Shown: positions 52,095 through 64,000 of the stretch, in pieces
How positions within the stretch are numbered: position 1 is the stretch's first letter
How the letters are laid out: each line of letters opens with the position of its first letter
Virus record (IMG/VR): IMGVR_UViG_3300025704_000015
Coordinates: 15,755-79,754 of that record
Strand: one strand, 5' to 3'
Length of the DNA stretch: 64,000 bases
Source: a virus
Notes under the pieces: generated by a model
The model's database searches: none
What the model was told of the DNA's origin: nothing
The model's input: the letters and a program-made list of their open reading frames with translations, nothing else
Made by a program: the position numbers and the translations under genes

Positions 52095-55000
52095 ATGTCA
52101 ACCAATATCGATTTGCATGCCGACAAAGGCAGCACTTTTTCTGTGGCCGTCAATGTTGAAAACAAAGACGGCTCTGCTTTTGATTGTACCGGCTACAATG
52201 TTAGAGGACAAGTTAGGAAAACTTATAAATCCGAATATGGAGTAAACCTTTCATGTGATTATATTGATCAAGCTGATGGTCTTATAGGTTTATCATTGAC
52301 CTCAGAAGAAACCGCTGCTATGAAGGCCGGGCGGTATTATTATGATGCTGAGATTTTTAGTGACAGCGGCACAGTAATTAGAGTTTTAGAAGGTATCTTC
52401 GAAGTTAGCCCACGTGTTATTAGTGAGACTTCGGACTTGGGGCTGGGCGATAATACCGATCCAGTACCCGATTCGCATGCACTTAGGAGAGACAATCCTC
52501 ATCAAGTTGCTCCCGATCAAATTGGACTAGGCAACGTAGATAATACAGCCGATGCAACCAAACCCGTATCTGGACCAACACAAGCTGCTTTAAATTTAAA
52601 AGCAGATCAATTAACTACATATACTAAAACAGAAGTTGATACAAAAGTTACTAATTTAATTGATTCCGCGCCCGGTGCATTAAATACTCTTAATGAATTG
52701 GCTGAGGCTCTTGGCGATGACGAGAATTTTGCATCTACTGTCAACTCGGCTATTGCTAGTAATTCAAGTGGAATAACAGCTTTAAACAGTCATGCCTTAA
52801 GTAAAACCAATCCGCATGATGTTTCTTTAGAACAGTTAACTGATGTTGATTTTCTTTCAAATCCGCCGGCGCAGGGCCAAGGTATTCTCTATGATACAGA
52901 TTCTCAAACATGGGTAGCTGCAGATATTGAGGGTGGTACAGGAACAGGTGGCCCAGTAGAATTAACTGACCAAACTCATTCTATATATGTTTCTAAGACT
53001 GGTAATAATATTAACCAGGGTTTAAATATTGATGATGCAAAATTAACAATAACCAGTGCTGTGAATGCAGCGCAAACTTTAATAGCTGAACCAGGGTTTG
53101 TAGGAAGTGTAAGAATTGATGTTTTAGATGGTGGCAGATACTTTGAAGGAAATGTAAACATTTCAGATAACATTCACGTGTTTGCGCCAACATCAACATT
53201 TATTGGAAACCTTACTATTGGTAATAATTCATCCTGTGTTATTGATACTCATTATGCCGACACAAACACACCTGGCTCCACTTTAGTTAATTTTGTTAAT
53301 GCAACAAATTCTTACTATACTGCTAATACTTTAGATATGCGAGGTGAAGCCGGTTCACAAACCGGTGGCATTGGTATTAGGTCTGAACAGAGTATTAACA
53401 GGTGTAAAGTAAATATTGGCGAGATTTATATTCCAACTGACGCAAAAGGATATCAAAGTGATGAAGACGGTAATTTAACTTTCGGCAGAGTAAATCTTAC
53501 AGGCGATAACTCATTCGCGTTTTACTTATTTGGCGTAGATGGAAATGCAAAAACTGATATAACATGCGGGGAAATTATTGCATCTCCAATAGGCAGTAAT
53601 ACTATGGCCGTTTACTGTAATACTGATAATTCAAAAACAACTTTAATATGTGGCCAGATAGATGTAGCTAAAGTTTATTCTATACCAAAGGCAACAGCTG
53701 AACTTTATATAATTTGCCCTAAAATTAGTGGTGATAGAACTCAAAATATTATTGGAGTTGTAAAAGAAATTTCAGATATTACTTTTGATTTAAAAGCAGA
53801 TCAAACCGCGTTGACCGCACACGTTTCTGATGCAACCAATCCTCATAGCGTAACTGCTACTCAAGTTGGTTTAGGCAACGTAGATAATACATCTGATGCA
53901 ACCAAACCCGTATCTGGACCAACTCAAAATGTTTTAAGTTTAAAGGCAAATTTATCTGATTTATCTAATCACATTAATGATTTAACCAATCCTCATAGCG
54001 TAACTGCTGCTCAAGTTGGACTTGGTAACGTAGATAATACATCTGATATTAATAAACCAGTTAGTACAGCAACACAAACTGCTTTAAATTCAAAGGCCAA
54101 TTCATCTGATTTAACAACTCACATTAATGATTTAACCAATCCTCATAGCGTAACTGCTACTCAAGTTGGACTTGGTAACGTAGATAATACATCTGATGCA
54201 ACCAAACCCGTATCTGGACCAACTCAAACTGCTTTAAATTTAAAGGCCAATTCATCTGATTTAACAACTCACATTAATGATTTAACTAATCCTCATAGCG
54301 TAACTGCTGCTCAAGTTGGTTTAGGAAATGTTAATAATACATCTGATATTAATAAACCAGTTAGTACAGCAACACAAACTGCTTTAAATTTAAAAGCAGA
54401 TCAATTAACTACATATACTAAAACAGAAGTTGATGCTGCTATAGGTGATGGGGGTGGAGGTGATTTAACCGCTGATGTTACATCTGATGTTAATGTTGGA
54501 AGTATTTCAACGGCTGATGTTGTTACAAGCGGCACGACTTTGCAAGAGTTTGTAGAGCAGTTATTGAAACAAACATATTTTCCAACTTTCGTAAACCCCT
54601 CTGCATCCCTTACTGATAATCTAGCCTCATCAGTAGAAGCTGGTACAACGGGAATTAATCTATCGGCCGGCTTTAATGCAGGCGCAATTAACGGAGCTCT
54701 CACTGATAATATTTGGGATCCAGGCCTAAAGCAAGCAAACAGAGCCGGGGCAGCAAACTCATACGAATTTAGTGGAACTTCTATAATTACAACAACACAG
54801 GGCGGATCTACTTTAAGTCAACCCGCTGTTGTAATTACAGATGGTGCTAATACTTTTAATGTTTCTATTGATTACGCAGAAGGCCCGCAACCACTTGACA
54901 GCGTGGGCAGCAATTATTTAAGCCCACTGCCAGCTGGAAGCGTGGTGAAGTCGCTAACTGTAAATGGAAGACGAAGAGCTTTTTATGGAACTAACCTCAG

Positions 55001-55310
55001 TGATAATACTAGTGCTGGTATAAGAGCTTTATCTAATAGTGTTTTAAACCCAGGGAATGGCTCGTCTTTCACAATTAACATTCCTGCTGGTGCAGTAAGT
55101 GTTAATTTCTCTTACCCAAATACTCTTCGAAATGTTACTAGTGTTCTTTATGCAGAAGGTCTTAATGCAGATGTTAAGGGATCTTTTGGATCACCCACTC
55201 TGGTTGATGTAGAAGGAGCCAATGGATTTAGTGCCATATCTTATAAAGTATATTCATTCACACCACCTTCACCATTTGAAGCTAGCGCAACTTACACCGT
55301 AACAATTTAA
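52095..55310 (+). CDS. tail fibre/baseplate-attached protein
   Basis: N-terminal adaptor (GQVRK...GRYYYD..RVLEG), APGALNTLNELAEALGDD, NPH-VT-QVGLGNVDNTSD repeats; late promoter at 52082. Confidence 0.8.
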   Translation: MSTNIDLHADKGSTFSVAVNVENKDGSAFDCTGYNVRGQVRKTYKSEYGVNLSCDYIDQADGLIGLSLTSEETAAMKAGRYYYDAEIFSDSGTVIRVLEGIFEVSPRVISETSDLGLGDNTDPVPDSHALRRDNPHQVAPDQIGLGNVDNTADATKPVSGPTQAALNLKADQLTTYTKTEVDTKVTNLIDSAPGALNTLNELAEALGDDENFASTVNSAIASNSSGITALNSHALSKTNPHDVSLEQLTDVDFLSNPPAQGQGILYDTDSQTWVAADIEGGTGTGGPVELTDQTHSIYVSKTGNNINQGLNIDDAKLTITSAVNAAQTLIAEPGFVGSVRIDVLDGGRYFEGNVNISDNIHVFAPTSTFIGNLTIGNNSSCVIDTHYADTNTPGSTLVNFVNATNSYYTANTLDMRGEAGSQTGGIGIRSEQSINRCKVNIGEIYIPTDAKGYQSDEDGNLTFGRVNLTGDNSFAFYLFGVDGNAKTDITCGEIIASPIGSNTMAVYCNTDNSKTTLICGQIDVAKVYSIPKATAELYIICPKISGDRTQNIIGVVKEISDITFDLKADQTALTAHVSDATNPHSVTATQVGLGNVDNTSDATKPVSGPTQNVLSLKANLSDLSNHINDLTNPHSVTAAQVGLGNVDNTSDINKPVSTATQTALNSKANSSDLTTHINDLTNPHSVTATQVGLGNVDNTSDATKPVSGPTQTALNLKANSSDLTTHINDLTNPHSVTAAQVGLGNVNNTSDINKPVSTATQTALNLKADQLTTYTKTEVDAAIGDGGGGDLTADVTSDVNVGSISTADVVTSGTTLQEFVEQLLKQTYFPTFVNPSASLTDNLASSVEAGTTGINLSAGFNAGAINGALTDNIWDPGLKQANRAGAANSYEFSGTSIITTTQGGSTLSQPAVVITDGANTFNVSIDYAEGPQPLDSVGSNYLSPLPAGSVVKSLTVNGRRRAFYGTNLSDNTSAGIRALSNSVLNPGNGSSFTINIPAGAVSVNFSYPNTLRNVTSVLYAEGLNADVKGSFGSPTLVDVEGANGFSAISYKVYSFTPPSPFEASATYTVTI
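53838..54433 (+). repeat. 150-bp (50-aa) tandem repeat x4, alternating A/B
   Basis: AATCCTCATAGCG at 53838, 53988, 54138 and 54288. Confidence 0.9.
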
Positions 55311-55323
55311 TATAAATAGCAAT

Positions 55324-58300
55324 ATGGCATCCATAGAATTTCCTCTTTCATTCACACGACAATTTGTCGGGCCACTTGATACATCATCAGTATATGATTC
55401 ATTAATAGATCTTCAAGACTATGTTAATAATAATCCTATTGCATATCTTGGTCAAGTTCTTAGTATAGCCAGTGGTGATGACGCTGGCATTTACATCGTT
55501 GGTGATGATGGTGCTGGCGGTTTTAATGTTGAAAAATATAGTAACGAAACAGATCTTAGTTCTAAAGCTAATTCATCTGATTTAACAACTCACATTAATG
55601 ATGCAACAAATCCTCATAGCGTAACTGCTACTCAAGTTGGTTTAGGTAGCGTAGAAAATACCGCTTTATCAACCTGGCCTGGAAGCGGTGCAATTACTAC
55701 AGTGGGAACACTTGGTAGTTTAACTGTATCTGGCCAAACTACATTTACTAACAATTTCCCGTTCTTACCTTCTGGTCCTCCAACAGACTCAAATCATGCA
55801 GTACCTAAAAGTTACGTTGATACTTTATCAGAGGGTTTACATACACACGATCAAGTTCATGCTTTAGCGCTCAGTGAATTAAGCGGTTTAATTGATGGAA
55901 ATGCTGGGCCTTCTACAGTGAGTTATGATAATGGAACCAATGGCGTTGGTGCCACACTTACTATTGTTTCTGCCGGTGAATTTAACTTTTTATCACCAAT
56001 CGTATGGGACAATGACCCTGATATTTTACTTACAAATAGAGTATTGGTTATTAATCAGGGAAATACTTTTGAGAATGGAATATATGAGATAACATCATCC
56101 ACCGTTTTAACTAGAGCGAGTGACTTTGATACCCCAGCAGAAATGGCAGGTGGTGATTTTGTATTTGTTACTCACGGCGATACTTACAATAATACTGGGT
56201 GGGTTCTTTCTGAACCTGTTAATACAGTTGGAACTGACGAAGTTCACTTCATTCAATTCTCTGGTGCGGGTTCATTTATTGGCGGGCATGGTATTACAAT
56301 CAATGGTAACGAAGTTTCTATTCCAAAGAACGAATTAATAGAACTTCAAGATCTAACTATATCCGGTGATTTTAAATTAATAAGCGATCCATTACCACAG
56401 GCAAATTATATATTAACAACTGATGCCGCTGGTATTGGTACATGGCAAGAACCGTTTCAATCGACTCTTAATTCAGTCACAACAAACGGAGCAACTACCC
56501 TCAACGATATTAGTGTAGGCAGGATTGTAACATTACATCCAACTAATCCAGTCAACAACAACATAGCCTCTGGTAATAGCAGTGCGTCTATTGGAGGAGT
56601 TGCAAATGTAGTAAGCGGGAATGGCTCAGTCAGTTATGGAGGTATCGGCCAAGAAGTTAAAGGGCTAGAGTCTTCGGCAATAGGTGGAATAAACACAATT
56701 CTAAACACTAGATACACCTCTGCTATTGGAGGAACTGGCAGTGTGGTTGGTTTAGGAACGTCGCCAATAGATGATATAGATGCACAAAATTCGATTGCAT
56801 TAGGGGGCAACGGTAATATAATTGAATCCGCACAAGCAGCGGCAACAGTAGGTGGAGACACAAATAGGATTTTAACAACTCATCACAGATCCGTTATTTT
56901 AGGAGGTCAAAACATTATAACAGATGCCGCGGATACTGCATACGTTCCCAATTTAAATGTCGGCGCAGGATTCAAAATGCCAACAGGCGCAATTGATACC
57001 TACGTGCTGACCACTGATGCAACTGGTGTAGGCACATGGCAAGAAGCGGCGGGAGGCGCTGTATCGGATTTAGAGTATTCAGGTGATTGGGATAGTGCTA
57101 CGAACCCCGCTTCTGCTACTACGGCACCAAGTAAAAATGCTGTATATGATAAGATTGAATTATTAGTAGCTGCTAGCACAGGTACAACAGATTTAAGTAT
57201 TGGTAATGTAACTGCGTCTTCTTTAGATATACAATCTAACACAGGAAACAATGCGACAATTCCAGCAGCAACAACAGTATCTGCTGGATTATTAACAAAC
57301 GCTCAATTTGATAAGTTGTCCAGCATTACTGTAACAAGTGCGATTAACCTTGATACCTTAACATCTAACATACAATCAAATTTATCCTATACATCAAGTG
57401 CAACAAACGGAGTTGTAACAAATAGTGATGGAAGCGGTTTTATAATTCCTGCGGCAACAGCAGTAGCTGGCACTAACATCGCTGGATTATTAACTCCAAC
57501 TCAATTTGATAAATTAGATTTAATTAGTATTGTTACTGATCCGGTTGATCTTAATGCTTTATCGAGCGATCTTAATACTTTATCGGGTGATCTTACTACT
57601 TTATCAACCGGCGTTTCAACAATTGCGGGGCGGGTTGATAATTTAGAAATAAACGTTAGTGCAATAACATCTAACGTATCGACAGATTTAGGTATTGGTA
57701 CTCATAATGATATATCTTTACATATAACAAGCAGCGATGGAGAAAATGCGATACTTCCTTTAGCAACAGCGTCAACTGACACTAACCTCGCTGGATTATT
57801 AAGCCCAACTCAATTTGATAAGTTGGACAACATTACAGTTGCATCGCCCGTTAATCTTGATACCTTATCATCCACAGTTGGCGGAATAACATCTAACATA
57901 CAATCAAATTTATCCTATACATCAAGTGCAATACAAGGCGTTATAGCAAATAGTGATGGAAGTGGTTTTATAATTCCTGCAGCGGATACCAACCTTGCTG
58001 GATTATTAACGAACGCTCAATTTGATAAGTTGGACAACATTACTGTAACAAGTCCGATTAATCTTAATACCTTATCATCCACCGTTGATGGAATAACATC
58101 TAACATACAATCAAATTTATCCTATACATCAAGTGCAATAGACGGAGTTATAGCAAATAGTGATGGAAGTGGTTTTATAATTCCTTTAGCAACAGCAGTG
58201 GAGGATACCAACATTGCTGGATTATTAAGCCCAACTCAATTTAATAAATTAAATTTAATTAGTATTGTTACTGATTCGGTTGATCTTAATGCTTTATCAA

Positions 58301-61206
58301 CCACCGTTGATGGAATAACATCTAACGTATCGACAGATTTAGGTATTGGTACTCATAATGCAACATCTTTACATATAACAAGCAGCGATGGAGACAACGC
58401 AATACTTCCTTTAGCAACGGCGTCAACTGACACTAACCTTGCTGGATTATTAAGCCCAACTCAATTTGATAAATTAGATTTAATTAGTGTAACAAACACA
58501 ATTGACCTTGATAACATTGTTGGGTCTGGTGACATAACAACAGATGATGCATGGGTAGCTGCTGGAGACTTGATTGTTGGCTCTGGAACAAACACGGCAT
58601 CAATATTACCCAAATCAGATAACAATTTTCTACATACGACAGCAGCAGGAGTTGTGCAATGGAAGTCGGCTATAGATGGAATTTCTAAGAATGGCACAGG
58701 TGCATTTAATAGCCGTAGAACTATTAATCTCATAGAGGGAACTAACATAACCCTAACGTTTGTCGATGATCCTTTGGGCAAGGTAGATGTTACTATAGAT
58801 GCCGCTGGTGGTGGAGGAGTTACAGATTTAGGTATTGGTACTCGTAATGATATATCATTACAGATAACGAGTAGCGATGGAGAAAATGCGACAATTCCTT
58901 TAGCAACGGCGTCAACTGATACTAACCTTGCTGGATTATTAAGCCCAACGCAATTTGATAAGTTGGACAACATTACTGTAACAGGTCCGATTGACCTTGA
59001 CAATCTCCCAACCGGTAGCGGTGATATGTTAAAGGCTGATTATGACCCAAATAATACAGCTCAAGATATCTATGATATTCGGTGGATGGTAGAGCACACA
59101 GACCCCTTGGCAACACCCAATAGAATTTTTACTAAATTAGAAAGAGACAAAGTTAATAATCTTTGGGTTGGAATTAATGAATTGGCCGCCAACGTAGCGC
59201 CAGTTGTTACTAATGACTCATCCCAAGGTTATTCGGTTGGTTCACTTTGGATAGACATCACTTCTGGAGAAGTATATAGGTGCGTTGATAATACCGTTGG
59301 AGCCGCGGTATGGGCCGAAACTTCACTATCAGGGCTAGCGCCAGTTGCTACTAGTGGCAGTGCTACTGACTTAACTACTGGAACTCTTTCAATCCTTAGG
59401 ATTGGTGATGAATCAATAACAAGCGGTAAGCTAGAAAGTACTATTACTACTTCGTTAGGAAAAGCCGATACCGCATTACAACCGGTGGATGTTGGAATTA
59501 GCGTCCAAGGGTGGTCTTCGGTATTATCTGCAACCACAGCTAGTTTCTTAGTAGCAGATAAAGATAAACTTGACAACATTATATTTGATGATCCTCGGGA
59601 TCCTGATATTCCAATTAACCTTGATACATTATTAAGTAACGTTACAACGAACAACAGTAAAGTATCTGCTGATGGTAGTGTAACAACGCATTCTGATATT
59701 AACGATGCGGGTTCTGGTAGTATCATTACTTTAAATGAAAGAGAGAAACTTTCATTAATCGCGTTTAATGCGGGACAAACTGCTCCTGATGATACTATAA
59801 ATTTAACTGATTTAGCATCAGCCGTTGCTGTTAATACGACAAAAGTATCTAACATACAATCAAATTTATCCTATACATCAAGTGCAATACAAGGCGTTAT
59901 AGTTAATTCTGATGGAAACGATGCTGTAATTCCTTTAGCAACAGCGTCAACTGGCACTAACATCGCTGGATTATTAACTCCAACTCAATTTGATAAATTA
60001 GGTAACATTACAATAAATCAGGCCGTTGATCTAGACGATCTAGAGACTAGGGTTAATAATATCGATGCTTCCGTTGTTCTAAAAGGAATTTGGGATCCTA
60101 ATAGTGGAAGTTTCCCAGCAAGTACCTTAGCAGGATTTAGTTACATCGTTGAAGCTGATGGAACAGTTGATAATATAACATTCAATGTTAATGACAGACT
60201 TATAGCATTAGTTGATGCTGCTTCAACTACTACTTATAGTCCTGATTGGTATAAAGCTGACTATACAGACCAAGTTTTATCGGTTAATGGTTTTACTGGA
60301 ACCGTTGTTTTAAATACAGATAATATAAGTGCAGCCGGCACCAATAAGTATGTAACTGCTGATGATGTTACTAAGTTGTCCAGCATTACTGTAACAAGTG
60401 CGATTAACCTTGATACCTTATTAAGTAACGTTACAACGAACAATAGTAAAGTATCTAACGTATCGACAGATTTATCCTATACATCAAGTGCAATACAAGG
60501 CGTTATAGTTAGTTCTGATGGAAACAATGCTATAATTCCTACGGCGGATACCAACATTGCTGGATTATTAAGCCCAGCTCAATTTGATAAGTTGGGTAAC
60601 ATTACAGTTACATCGCCAGTTAATCTTAACGATGTAATAGCAGCCCAAATAATTAACAATTCAAAGGAAGGAAACGCTACACACACTGGAGAAGTTACTG
60701 GCAATCTTGATCTGACGCTGCAGCCTTCGGCGATAAGTAATAGAGGCACCGTGACTGCATTAGCTGATAATGACTTTATTTTGATTGGTGATACAGATGA
60801 TAATGCCAGTCTTAAGAAAACGACCGCTCAATCTATTGCAGATTTGGCAACTCAAACTCCTGGTTTAAATACAGATGTTCAAACTATAACTTCTAGTGCA
60901 AATGCTGTTTCCTTTGATACTTCTAACGGGTGTAATGCTAGAATTATATTAACAGAAGATGTTTTATCGCTAGCAATAACTAAAGGCGGCGGAGCTTTAG
61001 ATAATGGAGATACTGGAATTATATTCATAAAGCAAAATGACCCAGGTGGCCACACATTTGCAGTTTCCACTCCTTCTACAATTAGAGTATATTCTGGTGA
61101 CTTGGCCAAGATCCCAGATATAACGATAAATAGTGTTGGCTCGGCTACTATCGGGTATGCATTTGATAGCGGCGAATTACATTTATATGTAAGTGAAACA
61201 ACTTAA
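55324..61206 (+). CDS. long tail-fibre-like protein (1960 aa)
   Basis: Thr/Ser/Gly-rich; RVLV..Q....ENGIY...RASD module; nine AGLLxxxQFxKL repeats; late promoter at 55311. Confidence 0.8.
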   Translation: MASIEFPLSFTRQFVGPLDTSSVYDSLIDLQDYVNNNPIAYLGQVLSIASGDDAGIYIVGDDGAGGFNVEKYSNETDLSSKANSSDLTTHINDATNPHSVTATQVGLGSVENTALSTWPGSGAITTVGTLGSLTVSGQTTFTNNFPFLPSGPPTDSNHAVPKSYVDTLSEGLHTHDQVHALALSELSGLIDGNAGPSTVSYDNGTNGVGATLTIVSAGEFNFLSPIVWDNDPDILLTNRVLVINQGNTFENGIYEITSSTVLTRASDFDTPAEMAGGDFVFVTHGDTYNNTGWVLSEPVNTVGTDEVHFIQFSGAGSFIGGHGITINGNEVSIPKNELIELQDLTISGDFKLISDPLPQANYILTTDAAGIGTWQEPFQSTLNSVTTNGATTLNDISVGRIVTLHPTNPVNNNIASGNSSASIGGVANVVSGNGSVSYGGIGQEVKGLESSAIGGINTILNTRYTSAIGGTGSVVGLGTSPIDDIDAQNSIALGGNGNIIESAQAAATVGGDTNRILTTHHRSVILGGQNIITDAADTAYVPNLNVGAGFKMPTGAIDTYVLTTDATGVGTWQEAAGGAVSDLEYSGDWDSATNPASATTAPSKNAVYDKIELLVAASTGTTDLSIGNVTASSLDIQSNTGNNATIPAATTVSAGLLTNAQFDKLSSITVTSAINLDTLTSNIQSNLSYTSSATNGVVTNSDGSGFIIPAATAVAGTNIAGLLTPTQFDKLDLISIVTDPVDLNALSSDLNTLSGDLTTLSTGVSTIAGRVDNLEINVSAITSNVSTDLGIGTHNDISLHITSSDGENAILPLATASTDTNLAGLLSPTQFDKLDNITVASPVNLDTLSSTVGGITSNIQSNLSYTSSAIQGVIANSDGSGFIIPAADTNLAGLLTNAQFDKLDNITVTSPINLNTLSSTVDGITSNIQSNLSYTSSAIDGVIANSDGSGFIIPLATAVEDTNIAGLLSPTQFNKLNLISIVTDSVDLNALSTTVDGITSNVSTDLGIGTHNATSLHITSSDGDNAILPLATASTDTNLAGLLSPTQFDKLDLISVTNTIDLDNIVGSGDITTDDAWVAAGDLIVGSGTNTASILPKSDNNFLHTTAAGVVQWKSAIDGISKNGTGAFNSRRTINLIEGTNITLTFVDDPLGKVDVTIDAAGGGGVTDLGIGTRNDISLQITSSDGENATIPLATASTDTNLAGLLSPTQFDKLDNITVTGPIDLDNLPTGSGDMLKADYDPNNTAQDIYDIRWMVEHTDPLATPNRIFTKLERDKVNNLWVGINELAANVAPVVTNDSSQGYSVGSLWIDITSGEVYRCVDNTVGAAVWAETSLSGLAPVATSGSATDLTTGTLSILRIGDESITSGKLESTITTSLGKADTALQPVDVGISVQGWSSVLSATTASFLVADKDKLDNIIFDDPRDPDIPINLDTLLSNVTTNNSKVSADGSVTTHSDINDAGSGSIITLNEREKLSLIAFNAGQTAPDDTINLTDLASAVAVNTTKVSNIQSNLSYTSSAIQGVIVNSDGNDAVIPLATASTGTNIAGLLTPTQFDKLGNITINQAVDLDDLETRVNNIDASVVLKGIWDPNSGSFPASTLAGFSYIVEADGTVDNITFNVNDRLIALVDAASTTTYSPDWYKADYTDQVLSVNGFTGTVVLNTDNISAAGTNKYVTADDVTKLSSITVTSAINLDTLLSNVTTNNSKVSNVSTDLSYTSSAIQGVIVSSDGNNAIIPTADTNIAGLLSPAQFDKLGNITVTSPVNLNDVIAAQIINNSKEGNATHTGEVTGNLDLTLQPSAISNRGTVTALADNDFILIGDTDDNASLKKTTAQSIADLATQTPGLNTDVQTITSSANAVSFDTSNGCNARIILTEDVLSLAITKGGGALDNGDTGIIFIKQNDPGGHTFAVSTPSTIRVYSGDLAKIPDITINSVGSATIGYAFDSGELHLYVSETT
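57190..60630 (+). repeat. dispersed/tandem ~55-60-aa fibre repeats (nine AGLLxxxQFxKL units)
   Basis: GCTGGATTATTAA...CAATTTGATAA recurs with near-identical DNA blocks. Confidence 0.85.
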
Positions 61207-61727: not shown

Positions 61728-64000
61728 ATGAGTGTAAATTTTCCATTAGAATTAATTGGAGTAGGTGACGCCCCGTCTTCATCTGCTGAGACGGTAATAA
61801 GAAGAATAGATATTGGTACTAAGTTCGCTGAACTCCCCATTACCGTTGATGGTCTAGGGAACACTATAACTAACCCGCAGGAATATTGGTATAGATGCGG
61901 TGGTGGCTCTACTCAAACGGGCAATAGTATATGGTATGTTAATACAGGGGGCTCGCAAGTTTATGAAGGCAAAACCACTGCGTTCACTCCTGGTAATATA
62001 CCTAGTTATGTTCCAGCCGTGGTCCAACAAACCGAGAGATATAGACAATCCGGTACCAACCTTGAATATACAATTCCAAACCTTGCATCAGAATCGCCCC
62101 TGCCTAGTGGAACATATAGAGTGAATCTTATTTTTAGTGATAACTATAGAAACTTTAGAGTTGTAAATATTTTTATTAATAATATTTTTGTAGGTGAGCT
62201 TAGAGAGGAAAGCACCGATGGAACGACATTTGTAGGTGAATTTCAATCATATGATGTTGAAGTATCAACTGGTGTCATAGAGATACGGTTTGAAAAAGTG
62301 CAAGAAAACCCCAAAATCCATGGAATTGAAATCATAAAGTTAGGTACTACTGATGAGACTGCTTTTGTTACAATAGGAAATATTAATAACACTAATGATA
62401 ATACCGGCTTCGGTTCAGTTCCATATGTATATGAAATTGCAAAATATGAAACGTTTAGAAGAAAGATAGATGATTATAATGCAGATCCTGTAAATGTAAA
62501 TAGACAAATAACTGCAGGCGATCCTAGATTTACAGATGATCTGCATCCTGCATATAGTGTATTTGGAAACAGAGCTTTTCGCTTTGTTAACTGGTTAAAT
62601 GAAAGAGAAGGCTACCAGCCAGCATATAAAATTTTAGGTGGCGGTTCAAATGATCCTATTTCTCTTTGGAGTAGTGCTGAAGCGTGGCAACTCGGTGGTG
62701 AAAACAGATTTAGACATAAGGCCGCAAAATATTTCTTACCATCTTATAATGAATGGTATAAAGCAGCTTATTATGATCCTATTAATACTGTTTATTACGA
62801 TTATGCAACTGGAAGTGACACTCCTCCAATTTCTACACCTGGTGGTAAAGTTGAAGGAACCGCGGTGTATAATCAAGACATCAATACTGGTCTTGCGGTT
62901 GTAACTAATGCGGGTGGGGAAAGTCCTTATGGTATAGTTGGAGGAAACGGCAATGTTAGTGAGTTTTTAGAAACGGCGGTAGGGCTGGTTAATGATGACC
63001 CTTTGGAAAATAGAATATCTGTTGGTGGTACTTATTCTGATACTACTATTCAACCAGCTACGGCGACTCCTCCTGGAGCTTCAACCACTTTATTTACCGT
63101 TGATGATGCTATTACATTTAGACTCGCTCGTAATCCTAATGCATTTTTCTATACATCATATTTTGAAGAGTTCGTACCTATTAACAATCCTGGTAACGAT
63201 GCAGATACTGTAAATGGTGGTTATGGTGATGTTAGTTATACATATCAAATTGCAAAATATAGTGTTGCTGAAGAACAGATCGCTGCTTACAATACAGCCA
63301 ACCCTTCATTACAAATATCAATAGATTCTCGTGGTGAAAGTAAACCAGCTACAAGTGTATCGTGGAATGAAGCTGCTCGTTATATTAATTGGCTTAATAT
63401 AAGAGAAGGGTTTCAACCCGCTTATAAATTTACTACAAACGGAGTTAATGATAACATTACTCTTTGGAGTAGTGCTGAAGCTTGGCAAACCGACGGCGAG
63501 AATCTTTATCGCCATAAAGATGCAAAATACTTCTTACCTTCAGAAGATGAGTGGTATAAGGCAGCTTATTATGATAGTCAAGCAGATGTTTATTACACTT
63601 ATCCAACAGGAAGCGATACTACTCCAGTAAAAACAGCTGGTAGTACAATAACAGGAGAGGCTGTTTATGACGGTCAAAGTGGTCCTGCTGATGTTAATAA
63701 TGCTGGTGGTCTTAGTCCTTATGGAACGATGGGTCAAGGAGGTAATACATATGAATGGACTGAAAATGCCCTTGATGGTACAAATGATTCTACTACTGAG
63801 TTGCGGGGGTTCCGCGGCGGCAGCTGGTTCAGCGGCTCCAGCGGCTTGCAGTCGTCCTCCCGCGACGGCGACTTCCCGTTCGGCGGGGACATCGCCCTCG
63901 GTTTTCGTGTCGCCTGTAACGTGAATGCTAATCCTATATCAGCCTCGCTCATCACCATTGGCGATGCTAGTAATAATCCCGATGGTGCCACCCCCTTTGG
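61728..64000 (+). CDS. malectin + tandem FGE-type C-lectin domain protein (3' end outside the window; absent from ORF track); candidate DGR target and receptor-binding protein
   Basis: I translated the frame from ATG61728 to the window end without a stop. Malectin-like QTERY...GTYRVNLIF...NPKIHGIEI, two LPS..EWYKAAYY...SPYG...GN..E domains and the start of a third; TATAAATA at 61702. Confidence 0.85.
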   Translation, partial: MSVNFPLELIGVGDAPSSSAETVIRRIDIGTKFAELPITVDGLGNTITNPQEYWYRCGGGSTQTGNSIWYVNTGGSQVYEGKTTAFTPGNIPSYVPAVVQQTERYRQSGTNLEYTIPNLASESPLPSGTYRVNLIFSDNYRNFRVVNIFINNIFVGELREESTDGTTFVGEFQSYDVEVSTGVIEIRFEKVQENPKIHGIEIIKLGTTDETAFVTIGNINNTNDNTGFGSVPYVYEIAKYETFRRKIDDYNADPVNVNRQITAGDPRFTDDLHPAYSVFGNRAFRFVNWLNEREGYQPAYKILGGGSNDPISLWSSAEAWQLGGENRFRHKAAKYFLPSYNEWYKAAYYDPINTVYYDYATGSDTPPISTPGGKVEGTAVYNQDINTGLAVVTNAGGESPYGIVGGNGNVSEFLETAVGLVNDDPLENRISVGGTYSDTTIQPATATPPGASTTLFTVDDAITFRLARNPNAFFYTSYFEEFVPINNPGNDADTVNGGYGDVSYTYQIAKYSVAEEQIAAYNTANPSLQISIDSRGESKPATSVSWNEAARYINWLNIREGFQPAYKFTTNGVNDNITLWSSAEAWQTDGENLYRHKDAKYFLPSEDEWYKAAYYDSQADVYYTYPTGSDTTPVKTAGSTITGEAVYDGQSGPADVNNAGGLSPYGTMGQGGNTYEWTENALDGTNDSTTELRGFRGGSWFSGSSGLQSSSRDGDFPFGGDIALGFRVACNVNANPISASLITIGDASNNPDGATPF
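63798..63914 (+). other. candidate DGR variable region (VR)
   Basis: 81/114 GC and only 8 A over 63801-63914; encodes LRGFRGGSW...SSSR...P...LGFRVA with 26 of 38 codons ending in C. Confidence 0.75.

Follow-up and report, generated by a model that had tools for sequence, protein, structure and literature searches.

A variable region in the adhesin of a marine T4-like phage that matches the template of a bacterial DGR cassette

A GC-rich patch in a phage adhesin gene

The DNA analysed here is a 64,000-nt stretch (the window) of a 79,754-bp contig from a marine T4-like phage. Close to its end, 116 bases within an adhesin gene (63798-63913, + strand) form a GC-rich patch, and the window stops 86 nt past this patch because the contig ends there. 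The adhesin gene lies downstream of tail-fibre genes at 52095-55310 and 55324-61206 and encodes, in order, a Malectin domain, a first FGE domain, a second FGE domain that contains the patch, and the start of a further module. Pfam matched Malectin at 5e-5 and FGE-sulfatase at 3.8e-23, the latter in two stretches. Neither Rfam (no match in the window) nor ARAGORN (no tRNA) provided an additional clue to the host. The features of the locus are as follows.

61728..63998, + strand: multidomain adhesin ORF, open at its 3' end, 757 aa in the window (ORF list, Pfam)
61983..62327, + strand: Malectin-like carbohydrate-binding domain, aa 86-200 (PF11721, E = 5.2e-5, 23.7 bits at a cut-off of 23)
63010..63130, + strand: segment of FGE domain 1 equivalent to the variable region (composition, scaffold scan)
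63270..63914, + strand: FGE-type C-type-lectin domain 2, aa 515-729 (PF03781, AlphaFold2, Foldseek)
63798..63913, + strand: variable region (VR), homologous to an Oceaniferula-type template repeat (TR) (alignment to the TR of contig L077, TR_L077; composition)
63900..63913, + strand: invariant 3' block GGTTTTCGTGTCGC, an IMH-like end of the VR (alignments)
63915..64000, + strand: start of the next module in the same ORF (~97% identical to phage contigs G001 and G002; overlaps the start of contig G004, 137/139)

Between 63801 and 63914 the GC content was 71.1% (41 G, 40 C, 25 T and 8 A), against 35.0% across the contig, and this was the sole site of the contig at which a 114-nt segment exceeded 60% GC. 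The A count of 8 was also the lowest of the contig, where the mean was 39.9. The patch is in frame with the adhesin ORF, and the third positions of its 38 codons are C in 26, G in 9, T in 3 and A in none. These counts bear out a sequence-only reading of the window, which had described a GC-rich, A-poor segment (71% GC, 8 A) with 26 of 38 codons ending in C and none in A; the peptide that it quoted was also correct.

The best PF03781 stretch, aa 515-729, covered profile positions 67-254 of 255 and stopped exactly at the patch, and the VR forms the C-terminal end of FGE domain 2. An AlphaFold2 model of this domain (pLDDT 90.3, pTM 0.88) was matched by Foldseek to CarF (5aoh), to the DGR variable protein TvpA (2y3c, E = 1e-11) and to FGEs, and a profile search also matched TvpA (2e-5). 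Both the Pfam boundary and the structural matches support the earlier placement of the VR in an FGE-type C-lectin domain. The internal position of the VR, which had been deduced from an ORF running beyond the patch, holds as well, because a full-length homologue (L006:8567-13273, from G002, a phage contig 95-99% identical to ours) is 1568 aa long and ends, downstream of the patch, in BspA-type LRRs (LRR_5, 4.7e-140).

The equivalent segment of FGE domain 1 (~63010-63130) had been called AT-rich, and indeed it has ~40% GC and no GC-rich patch. A scan of the whole contig with the TR scaffold gave no match at this segment, which is either unwritten or wholly decayed. Such AT-rich, seemingly unwritten versions of the motif, in domain 1 and in a paralogue on G004 (RGGGY), indicate that the protein itself does not force GC-rich codons.

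The template repeat and its bacterial cassette

An AAC-rich template was inferred beforehand from the alignment of phage VRs, and the template search matched two bacterial sequences that both hold this copy, namely a metagenome contig (L077) and a MAG of Oceaniferula sp., Verrucomicrobiaceae (L078). The template predicted by the sequence-only reading was thus found nearly verbatim, in a bAvd-RT-TR cassette of the Oceaniferula MAG and of the related bacterial contig. The complete TR alignment spans 124 nt (63790-63913), of which the first 8 nt do not resemble the template in this phage. The window VR differed from TR_L077 at 26 of the 35 template A positions and at only 8 of the 89 other positions (Fisher p = 1.5e-12), and four of these eight non-A mismatches fell in the 5'-most 8 nt of the alignment. 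Two other phage VRs, G002a and G003b, differed from the template at 21/35 and 24/35 A positions and at 1/89 and 5/89 non-A positions, respectively. The block GGTTTTCGTGTCGC is the same in the TR, the bacterial VR and nearly all phage VRs, and has drifted in G003a and L009. By this alignment, the patch is confirmed as a genuine DGR variable region.

The cassette consists of an FGE/PEP-CTERM target gene with its own VR, followed by bAvd, RT and the AAC-rich TR, the last three lying within L078:700-2420. L078 encodes the FGE and PEP-CTERM target, bAvd (PF22296, 2.7e-14) and an RT at L078:1067-2155 (RVT_1, 4.4e-25), and the cassette is followed by genes for GNAT, UbiE, an aminotransferase and MnmE, at 50-59% GC. 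L077 is 88% identical to L078, likewise continues into the aminotransferase gene, and has its RT at L077:516-1604 (RVT_1, 1.8e-23), also preceded by bAvd (2.6e-14). Both RTs carry the motifs IGNLTSQ and YVDD. Further genomes of this family hold related TRs, one of them at 2.7 Mb of a chromosome-sized contig, and housekeeping genes of bacterial type flank the cassette. As read from the assembled sequences, these comparisons show both the VR/TR relationship and the position of the cassette in bacterial chromosomes. We infer that an Oceaniferula-like member of the Verrucomicrobiaceae is the probable host; this assignment rests on the TR match and a soft protein-level affinity to Verrucomicrobiales, with no CRISPR or culture link.

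A T4-like genome with the target only

The T4-type order of gp13 to gp23 followed by UvsW is present in the phage. PHROG matches included gp13, gp14, gp15, TerL, sheath, portal, scaffold, MCP and UvsW and, further, a gp46-like protein, a family B DNA polymerase, a gp41-like helicase and a baseplate wedge protein, and the DNA polymerase is 46-49% identical to those of T4-like cyanophages. This core gene set in T4 order, as in myoviruses of the Straboviridae/Kyanoviridae type, upholds the earlier classification as T4-like. No integrase was found in the parts of the genome examined.

The window's contig (G000) and G004 overlap by 137 of 139 nt inside the same VR allele, which merges them into 170,585 bp. 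This VR junction is bridged by G001 and G002, and the other junction by L137 and L138 with ~70 nt between them, so that the phage genome closes as a circle of ~170.6 kb, a composite of contigs from different samples. In this composite we found no RT (PF00078, and a custom DGR-RT HMM with --max, best E = 1.2), no Avd and no TR. The absence of an RT and a template repeat from the window, which had been noted before, accordingly extends to the remainder of the contig. No copies that differ only at adenines turned up in an ungapped scan of the contig itself and of six related contigs, and an RT search of 41 (5 + 36) related IMG/VR records, including four complete but distant phages, gave no match.

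Pattern searches of IMG/VR gave the same picture. The VR scaffold pattern occurred at five places in four phage contigs, whereas the TR was absent from 2.9 million contigs; the first two template patterns found either nothing or known VRs only. A generic RGGNWNNN template motif found 40 viral contigs, all rejected as unrelated (≤60% identity to the TR, ≥44% GC). Close relatives of the RT were not found in IMG/VR, and the best relative in GenBank phages, in phages of 32-60 kb, was 36% identical. Separately, two unrelated phages (L034 and L035) showed a weak A-biased repeat of 52 nt with 73% identity.

The contigs are each a fragment (17-46% complete by CheckV). Since G000 and G004 are each broken at the VR and at a variable tail-fibre gene, islands specific to some strains remain possible. 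Cassettes of DGRs are also described in the literature as moving between phages and cells. A cassette owned by the phage lineage or by some of its strains, recently exchanged with the host and located in an unassembled region or a strain variant, would fit these points. We nevertheless consider it very improbable, because the circle lacks RT, Avd and TR and each of its junctions is spanned by independent contigs, contigs of 147-172 kb that encode related tandem-FGE proteins are of a size that fits, none of the 41 related records has an RT, and the TR pattern is unmatched in IMG/VR while the VR scaffold is not. Furthermore, the sole contig with the TR in a single-pattern metagenome scan is bacterial, and at non-A sites the 71% GC patch departs from the bacterial TR by no more than 5%, also where the flanking domains of the phage lineages share only 52-66% identity. 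The downstream phage cassette envisaged by the sequence-only reading is thus not borne out. The reading had also remarked on a T4-like phage as an unusual DGR carrier; the phage is T4-like, but it bears only the target and carries no DGR. VR and cassette are not on the same replicon.

Origin of the phage alleles

At least seven mutually independent VR alleles occur on the same scaffold in several genes and lineages, and their agreement at template-A sites does not exceed chance, as expected of independent draws. Two paralogues on one contig (L076) differ from each other at 19 of 35 A sites (54%), 8 of 89 non-A sites and 15 of 517 flank sites (~3%), a pattern that shows divergence specific to adenines and later than their duplication on a phage-type backbone. 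For the window and G002a, the alleles are embedded in 500 nt of only 70-85% identity, which keeps this pair from being a clean adenine-only contrast. Most VR scaffolds are 94-99% identical to the bacterial TR, synonymous sites included, while the adjacent DNA is AT-rich and 70-85% identical between strains. Markers in the 5' block differ among the VRs (GCTC or GATC), and these differing TR-allele markers imply several donors. Decay was visible in G003a, where 16/89 non-A positions mismatch and the 3' block is degraded, and in L009, with drifted codons.

Several other candidates for variation were rejected. GC-rich, A-poor patches in L031, L036, L038/40/42 and L044 are low-complexity Pro/Thr/Val/Gly repeats and not VRs, and the presence or absence of the VR between G004 and G006 reflects a swapped allelic module and no clean insertion. 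A depth drop over the VR unitig in one run (X3), a candidate sign of coexisting alleles, was explained by a paralogous FGE gene with common flanking words.

Logan contigs from four marine metagenome runs contained no alternative letters in 63798-63914, and identical alleles were found in contigs from different metagenomes for G004 (3' half) and for the G001/G002 pair. The phage reaches 150-450x in some runs (X1, X3 and their series). Contigs drop rare variants, so an unchanged allele limits the rate of writing and does not exclude the process. The bacterial VR is immediately followed by GCAGCT-CTTG-AGCTGC, a hairpin with a 6-bp stem and a 4-nt loop. In contrast, phage VRs (window, L006, L003 and L076) fold no better than shuffled sequences (z = 0.07-0.35; 0.07 for window:63895-63975) and have no downstream hairpin. 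In BPP-1, efficient homing needs a hairpin/cruciform after the VR (PMC3240598). The active or recent DGR proposed by the sequence-only reading therefore stands only in part; the scaffold shows hardly any decay, but no change of the allele was seen in contigs from four runs, and the hairpin is lacking.

One reading of the stable allele, the absent hairpin and the decay in G003a and L009 is an inert relic, in which patches were brought in by one or a few past transfers, are no longer renewed and are drifting. We regard this as improbable, since it does not accommodate at least seven independent alleles over several genes and lineages, scaffolds still 94-99% identical to the TR at synonymous sites too, the adenine-specific divergence since the L076 duplication, or the implied plurality of donors.

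With a cassette in the chromosome of the probable host and none in the phage, the virus appears to draw the diversity of its binding site from a mutator of the host. We lean slightly towards a host DGR that writes into phage DNA in trans, and does so rarely. Of the two sources left open before, a phage cassette and a host DGR in trans, the second is thus favoured and the first, absent from the closed genome, is unsupported. In an infected cell that expresses the DGR, TR RNA would be reverse-transcribed with random misincorporation at adenines, and the cDNA would be incorporated into the homologous tract of replicating phage DNA, guided by the common 3' block GGTTTTCGTGTCGC and 20-30 nt of 5' homology, to give a re-tipped phage lectin. 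Writing would be rare because the phage VRs have no downstream hairpin, and we propose that this rarity is why alleles look fixed within strains and differ between strains, genes and paralogues. That cDNA acts directly on phage DNA is inferred, as is the continued operation of the process, of which there is no direct sign in this phage.

Both VRs of L076 retain 13 nt of 3' flank of the bacterial target-gene type (AGCGGTNCCTGAG, encoding AAVPE, the PEP-CTERM start), which is absent from the TR, and this bacterial-type flank indicates that the founding event there at least was capture of DNA from a host target gene. On balance it could go either way whether the phage maintains host-captured VR scaffolds as landing pads in several lectin domains of the tail cluster, with the host DGR rewriting them in trans during infection.

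The main rival takes this capture further. In that account, the host DGR diversifies only its own target and the phage swaps the patch by recombination with a finished bacterial VR; the conserved patch ends would be homology arms, and no cDNA would ever act on phage DNA. T4-like phages actively recombine. Besides the L076 flank, the 36-55% identity of the phage FGE domains to Verrucomicrobial FGE/PEP-CTERM proteins, the stability of alleles within strains and the lack of a hairpin at phage VRs all agree with such a pick-up. However, the 3' arm would be merely 14-15 nt and the interior homology is interrupted every few bases. The patch ends ≤1 nt from the end of TR homology, without a bacterial flank, in G003b and in the genes of window/G002a and G002b/G006, and the L076 copies, in which 54% of template A positions diverged after duplication, would need two further precise replacements. 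The phage alleles also match neither bacterial allele, although only two bacterial alleles were compared. We therefore regard pick-up alone as unlikely, with writing in trans as the preferred reading.

Comparison with known DGRs and biological meaning

In Bordetella phage BPP-1, the prototype phage DGR (mtd VR - avd - TR - brt), transfer from TR to VR is likewise adenine-specific and uses an AAC-rich template, the VR forms the ligand-binding C-terminal end of a receptor-binding protein that has a C-type-lectin fold and is encoded in the tail-fibre region, and the cassette supplies an RT with the [ILV]GxxxSQ motif along with an accessory protein of the Avd type. In contrast to the present case, BPP-1 is a temperate phage with adjacent target and cassette, and an IMH and a GC-rich hairpin come after its VR. 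The present phage is T4-like, without cassette or hairpin; its VR is internal to a 1568-aa protein, and the cognate cassette is in a bacterial chromosome. Remote targets of cellular DGRs (the TvpA family of Treponema denticola, and Trichodesmium) are similar in that one TR serves several FGE-type CLec targets distant from the RT, and TvpA (2y3c) is among the best structural matches of the window domain. Those targets, however, share a genome with their cassette, whereas the present ones belong to a separate replicon that is virulent.

The prevailing view is that DGRs act on targets co-inherited with their cassette, and most known phage DGRs belong to temperate phages with their own RT. In their survey, Wu et al. 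(2018; PMC5758913) argue that remote targets should not span phage and cell, for want of joint inheritance. In laboratory trans-complementation (Guo et al., 2011, PMC3240598; reconstitution in E. coli, PMC12875486), as proposed here, VRs are rewritten across replicons; Avd, TR and RT on one replicon rewrite a VR on another, even that of a phage without them (PMC3240598; PMC12875486), and when supplied from plasmids they work on phage, chromosomal and plasmid targets (PMC3240598; PMC12875486; PMC5758913). The efficiency of such writing depends on cis elements and replication (PMC3240598; PMC12875486). Those systems were engineered, and our literature search found no published case in nature of a bacterial chromosomal DGR paired with the VRs of a virulent phage. 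This analysis contributes a phage genome closed without a cassette, the comparison of the L076 paralogues within one contig, a bacterial-type flank as evidence that the founding event was a capture, the lack of a hairpin, and an allele that stays stable at contig level across four runs.

In the present case a virulent T4-like phage holds the targets, and the machinery belongs to a bacterial chromosome. If writing is direct, abundant marine myoviruses would rely on a host-encoded mutator for the evolution of their host range. VR scaffolds would then serve as sequence-level host predictors for uncultured phages and, by naming the template of the host, as a built-in host tag. In this instance they point to Verrucomicrobia, a group with few cultured phage systems to our knowledge. 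Likewise, an entire class of targets would escape DGR surveys that demand an RT beside the VR, a point that Roux et al. (2021) also make for remote targets. Writing in trans, if true, would mean that a lytic virus makes use, in nature and across replicons, of a bacterial hypermutation machine, and even if the phage only picks up finished VRs, the host DGR would be the ultimate source of the diversity of its receptor binding.

The GC-rich patch and its adhesin gene

The window covers bases 15755-79754 of a 79,754-bp IMG/VR contig (G000; CheckV completeness 44%) that opens with genes in T4 order (gp13, gp14, gp15, TerL, sheath, portal, scaffold, MCP, and UvsW). The window itself encodes a gp46-like SbcC, a DnaB-like helicase, RNR, and a family B DNA polymerase 46-49% identical to T4-like cyanophage polymerases. 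The whole contig has 35.0% GC, and the patch at 63801-63914 (G41 C40 T25 A8, 71.1% GC; third codon positions C26, G9, T3, A0) is its sole 114-nt window above 60% GC and also its adenine minimum (8 per 114-nt window against a mean of 39.9). Our recount reproduced exactly the composition reported in the sequence-only reading. The contig ends 86 nt past the patch, which lies in the following gene.

61728-63998: adhesin ORF, open at its 3' end, with the patch in frame
aa 515-729 of this ORF: second FGE-sulfatase stretch (Pfam), whose end coincides exactly with the patch

Pfam assigned a Malectin domain and two FGE-sulfatase stretches to this ORF. Two tail-fibre genes (1071 and 1960 aa) lie upstream, and many copies of a ~60-90 aa motif (…NLAGLLSPTQFDKL…) recur throughout the 1960-aa protein (55324-61206). 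An AlphaFold2 model of the second FGE domain (pLDDT 90.3, pTM 0.88) matched FGE-type C-lectin folds, with the DGR variable protein TvpA (2y3c) ranked second (E=1e-11), and a sequence profile likewise reached TvpA. The homologue on a related contig (G002, 95-99% identical) has 1568 aa and continues after the variable region (VR) into BspA-type leucine-rich repeats; the VR is thus internal to the protein, as had been proposed from the ORF running on past it.

The template and its bacterial cassette

A protein-guided IMG/VR scan returned 50 loci, and the closest of them, all ~35% GC, have a GC-rich patch in the corresponding position. In the aligned patches, invariant blocks (CGCGGCGGC, CTGG, TTGCAGTCG, CCGC, CCCGG, GAG, and GGTTTTCGTGTCGC) are separated by freely varying positions, mostly bases 1-2 of NNC codons, and from this alignment we deduced a template whose variable codons read AAC. 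The deduced pattern had no match in IMG/VR; its two matches were L077, a 2151-bp metagenome contig, and L078, which is contig 12 in the MAG of an Oceaniferula sp. (Verrucomicrobiaceae). Both contain exactly the predicted AAC-rich copy, so that the template anticipated by the sequence-only reading was recovered almost letter for letter. L078 carries a DGR cassette in this order:

VR 383-508: end of the target gene, which encodes a PEP-CTERM-anchored FGE-sulfatase protein and contains its own VR
after the target gene: bAvd
after bAvd: reverse transcriptase (RT; RVT_1 4.4e-25; motifs IGNLTSQ and YVDD)
~2174-2321, after the RT: template repeat (TR)
downstream of the TR: GNAT, UbiE, aminotransferase, an unknown gene, and MnmE, at 50-59% GC

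L077 is 88% identical to L078 over the cassette and then enters the same aminotransferase gene, which indicates that L077 is bacterial too. GNAT and UbiE (L078:2520-3870) are missing at L077:1965-2017, an indel beside the cassette. At least 150 nt downstream of the TR are conserved between the two bacteria, including a short hairpin just after it (L077:1765-1800, ATCGTT...AACGAT; L078:2320-2345), and this region probably forms a structured spacer in the DGR RNA. Among 201 genomes sampled in Verrucomicrobiaceae, seven had any match and four bore a TR: the Oceaniferula MAG and three others, whose TRs belong to the same family but have diverged; one of these TRs lies 2.7 Mb into a chromosome-sized contig. 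The phage scaffold fits only the TR type of the MAG and L077.

Over 124 aligned bases, the window VR mismatches the L077 template at 26/35 template adenines and 8/89 other positions (Fisher p=1.5e-12); four of the eight non-adenine mismatches lie within the 5'-most 8 nt, which are not part of the converted tract. One G002 allele (G002a) differs at 21/35 adenines and 1/89 others. Of two VRs on another relative, G003b differs at 24/35 and 5/89, and G003a, with 16/89 non-adenine mismatches, is a decaying VR. Across six phage VRs, 34 of the 35 adenine columns vary. At template-adenine sites, agreement between any pair of alleles, phage or bacterial, is no better than chance, which makes every allele an independent draw. 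VR length also differs between two strains in one gene (119 nt at L003:10667-10785, i.e. G002:50262-50380; 98 nt at G006:41584-41487), the longer having 18 extra nt absent from the known TR, which points to TRs of other lengths in additional host strains or to post-writing indels. The adenine-restricted mismatches and the TvpA-like fold bear out the earlier proposal of a DGR-type VR in an FGE-type lectin domain, and we have little doubt that the patch is a genuine one. Its template very probably came from a chromosomal DGR of the Oceaniferula type, which is absent from the phage.

The merged phage genome

Positions 43688-79754 of G000 overlap G002 1-35343, and G002 35218-68784 overlaps a third contig, G004, in reverse. 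The last 139 nt of G000 match the start of reversed G004 at 137 positions (window 63860-64000; G004:90832-90970), an overlap that takes in the identical 3' half of the VR allele. G000 stops 86 nt after the VR and G004 starts within it, so two contigs break at one VR; this is consistent with graph branching, because the flanking words are common to a paralogous FGE gene and the G002-type allele. Two bridging contigs (L137 and L138) close the circle by linking G004 position 1 with G000 position 1 across ~70 nt, in T4 order (baseplate and fibres, then gp13). The merged phage is 170,585 bp long. Related tandem-FGE proteins (P0125, P0127, and P0129; 50-54% identity) lie on contigs of 168,102, 147,378, and 171,735 bp, which agree with this size and are probably complete genomes of sister phages.

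An RT search in G000 and 41 related viral records found none. Searching with a 122-sequence DGR-RT HMM (--max) recovered the two bacterial RTs alone (E about 1e-187), with a best phage ORF at only E=1.2; phmmer with Avd found nothing in the phage, and no template-like copy was present in G000, G002, G004, or the bridging contigs. An unseen phage-borne cassette is therefore very improbable. The sequence-only reading had offered a downstream phage cassette or a host DGR in trans; the former is absent from the merged genome, and the latter is best supported.

Proposed writing-in, capture, and level of activity

The evidence on whether the VR was written into the phage or picked up as finished host VR DNA by recombination points both ways. 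It is clearest on L076, a contig with two paralogous VR copies on a phage-type backbone.

L076:1-641 and L076:3159-3799: tandem paralogues, each with an FGE C-terminus, VR, AAVPE, stop codon, and a downstream stretch of ~200 nt common to both

On the 3' side of each VR stand 13 nt that match the flank of the bacterial target gene (AAVPE, where PEP-CTERM begins) and not the TR flank, and thus at least the founding event was DNA capture from a host target gene. Pick-up is also in keeping with the 36-55% identity of phage FGE domains to Verrucomicrobial FGE proteins. However, the two copies, with the captured flank in common and flanks ~97% identical (15 differences in 517 nt), differ at 19/35 template adenines (54%) and 8/89 other template positions; adenine-specific change therefore postdates the duplication, on an AT-rich phage-type backbone, which favors writing-in. 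In three other genes, moreover, no more than 1 nt separates the end of the patch from the point where TR homology ends, and the 3' arm for homologous recombination would be just 14-15 nt. The 5' tract boundary differs among VRs, and markers of two or more TR alleles (GCTC and GATC) occur in the 5' block, indicating several donors, which we also count for writing-in. AT-rich, unwritten versions of the motif provide a natural control on the same side, since they show that GC-rich codons are not demanded by the protein or fold. One is in FGE domain 1 of the window ORF, and the other is a G004 paralogue.

G004 ~74,900-75,500, minus strand: paralogous FGE domain, AT-rich RGGGY...TSSTNAT, with a GC-rich VR there in the G006 and G002 alleles

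Pick-up thus remains possible but unlikely, and we lean toward direct writing in trans by the host DGR as the best-supported mechanism. In laboratory systems, a VR carried by a phage, chromosome, or plasmid can be rewritten when Avd, TR, and RT are supplied from a different replicon (PMC3240598, PMC5758913, PMC12875486). In the literature, we found trans supply of DGR parts only for engineered systems; the remote DGR targets described there shared a genome with their cassette, and we met no natural example of a virulent phage paired with a host DGR.

Window positions 62000-64000 are present in twenty marine metagenome runs, and Logan assembled contigs of four runs, at depths up to about 270-450, contained no alternative letters inside 63798-63914, although assembly loses rare variants. 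Identical VR alleles occur in contigs from different metagenomes (G004 with G000 over the 3' half of the VR, and G001 with G002). The bacterial VR has a 6-bp GC-rich hairpin directly 3', and no hairpin follows the phage VRs; in BPP-1, homing becomes inefficient once this hairpin is lost (PMC3240598). We consider an inert relic improbable; the stable alleles and missing hairpin imply that rewriting, if it still occurs, is rare and that the alleles act as strain markers. Comparison of window 63400-63890 with G002:34460-35260 revealed that the second FGE domain as a whole forms a ~500-nt mosaic block with 70-85% identity, containing both the window and G002a alleles, inside otherwise 99% identical genes. 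Exchange of domain-level alleles between co-occurring phage strains thus also shuffles the FGE domains.
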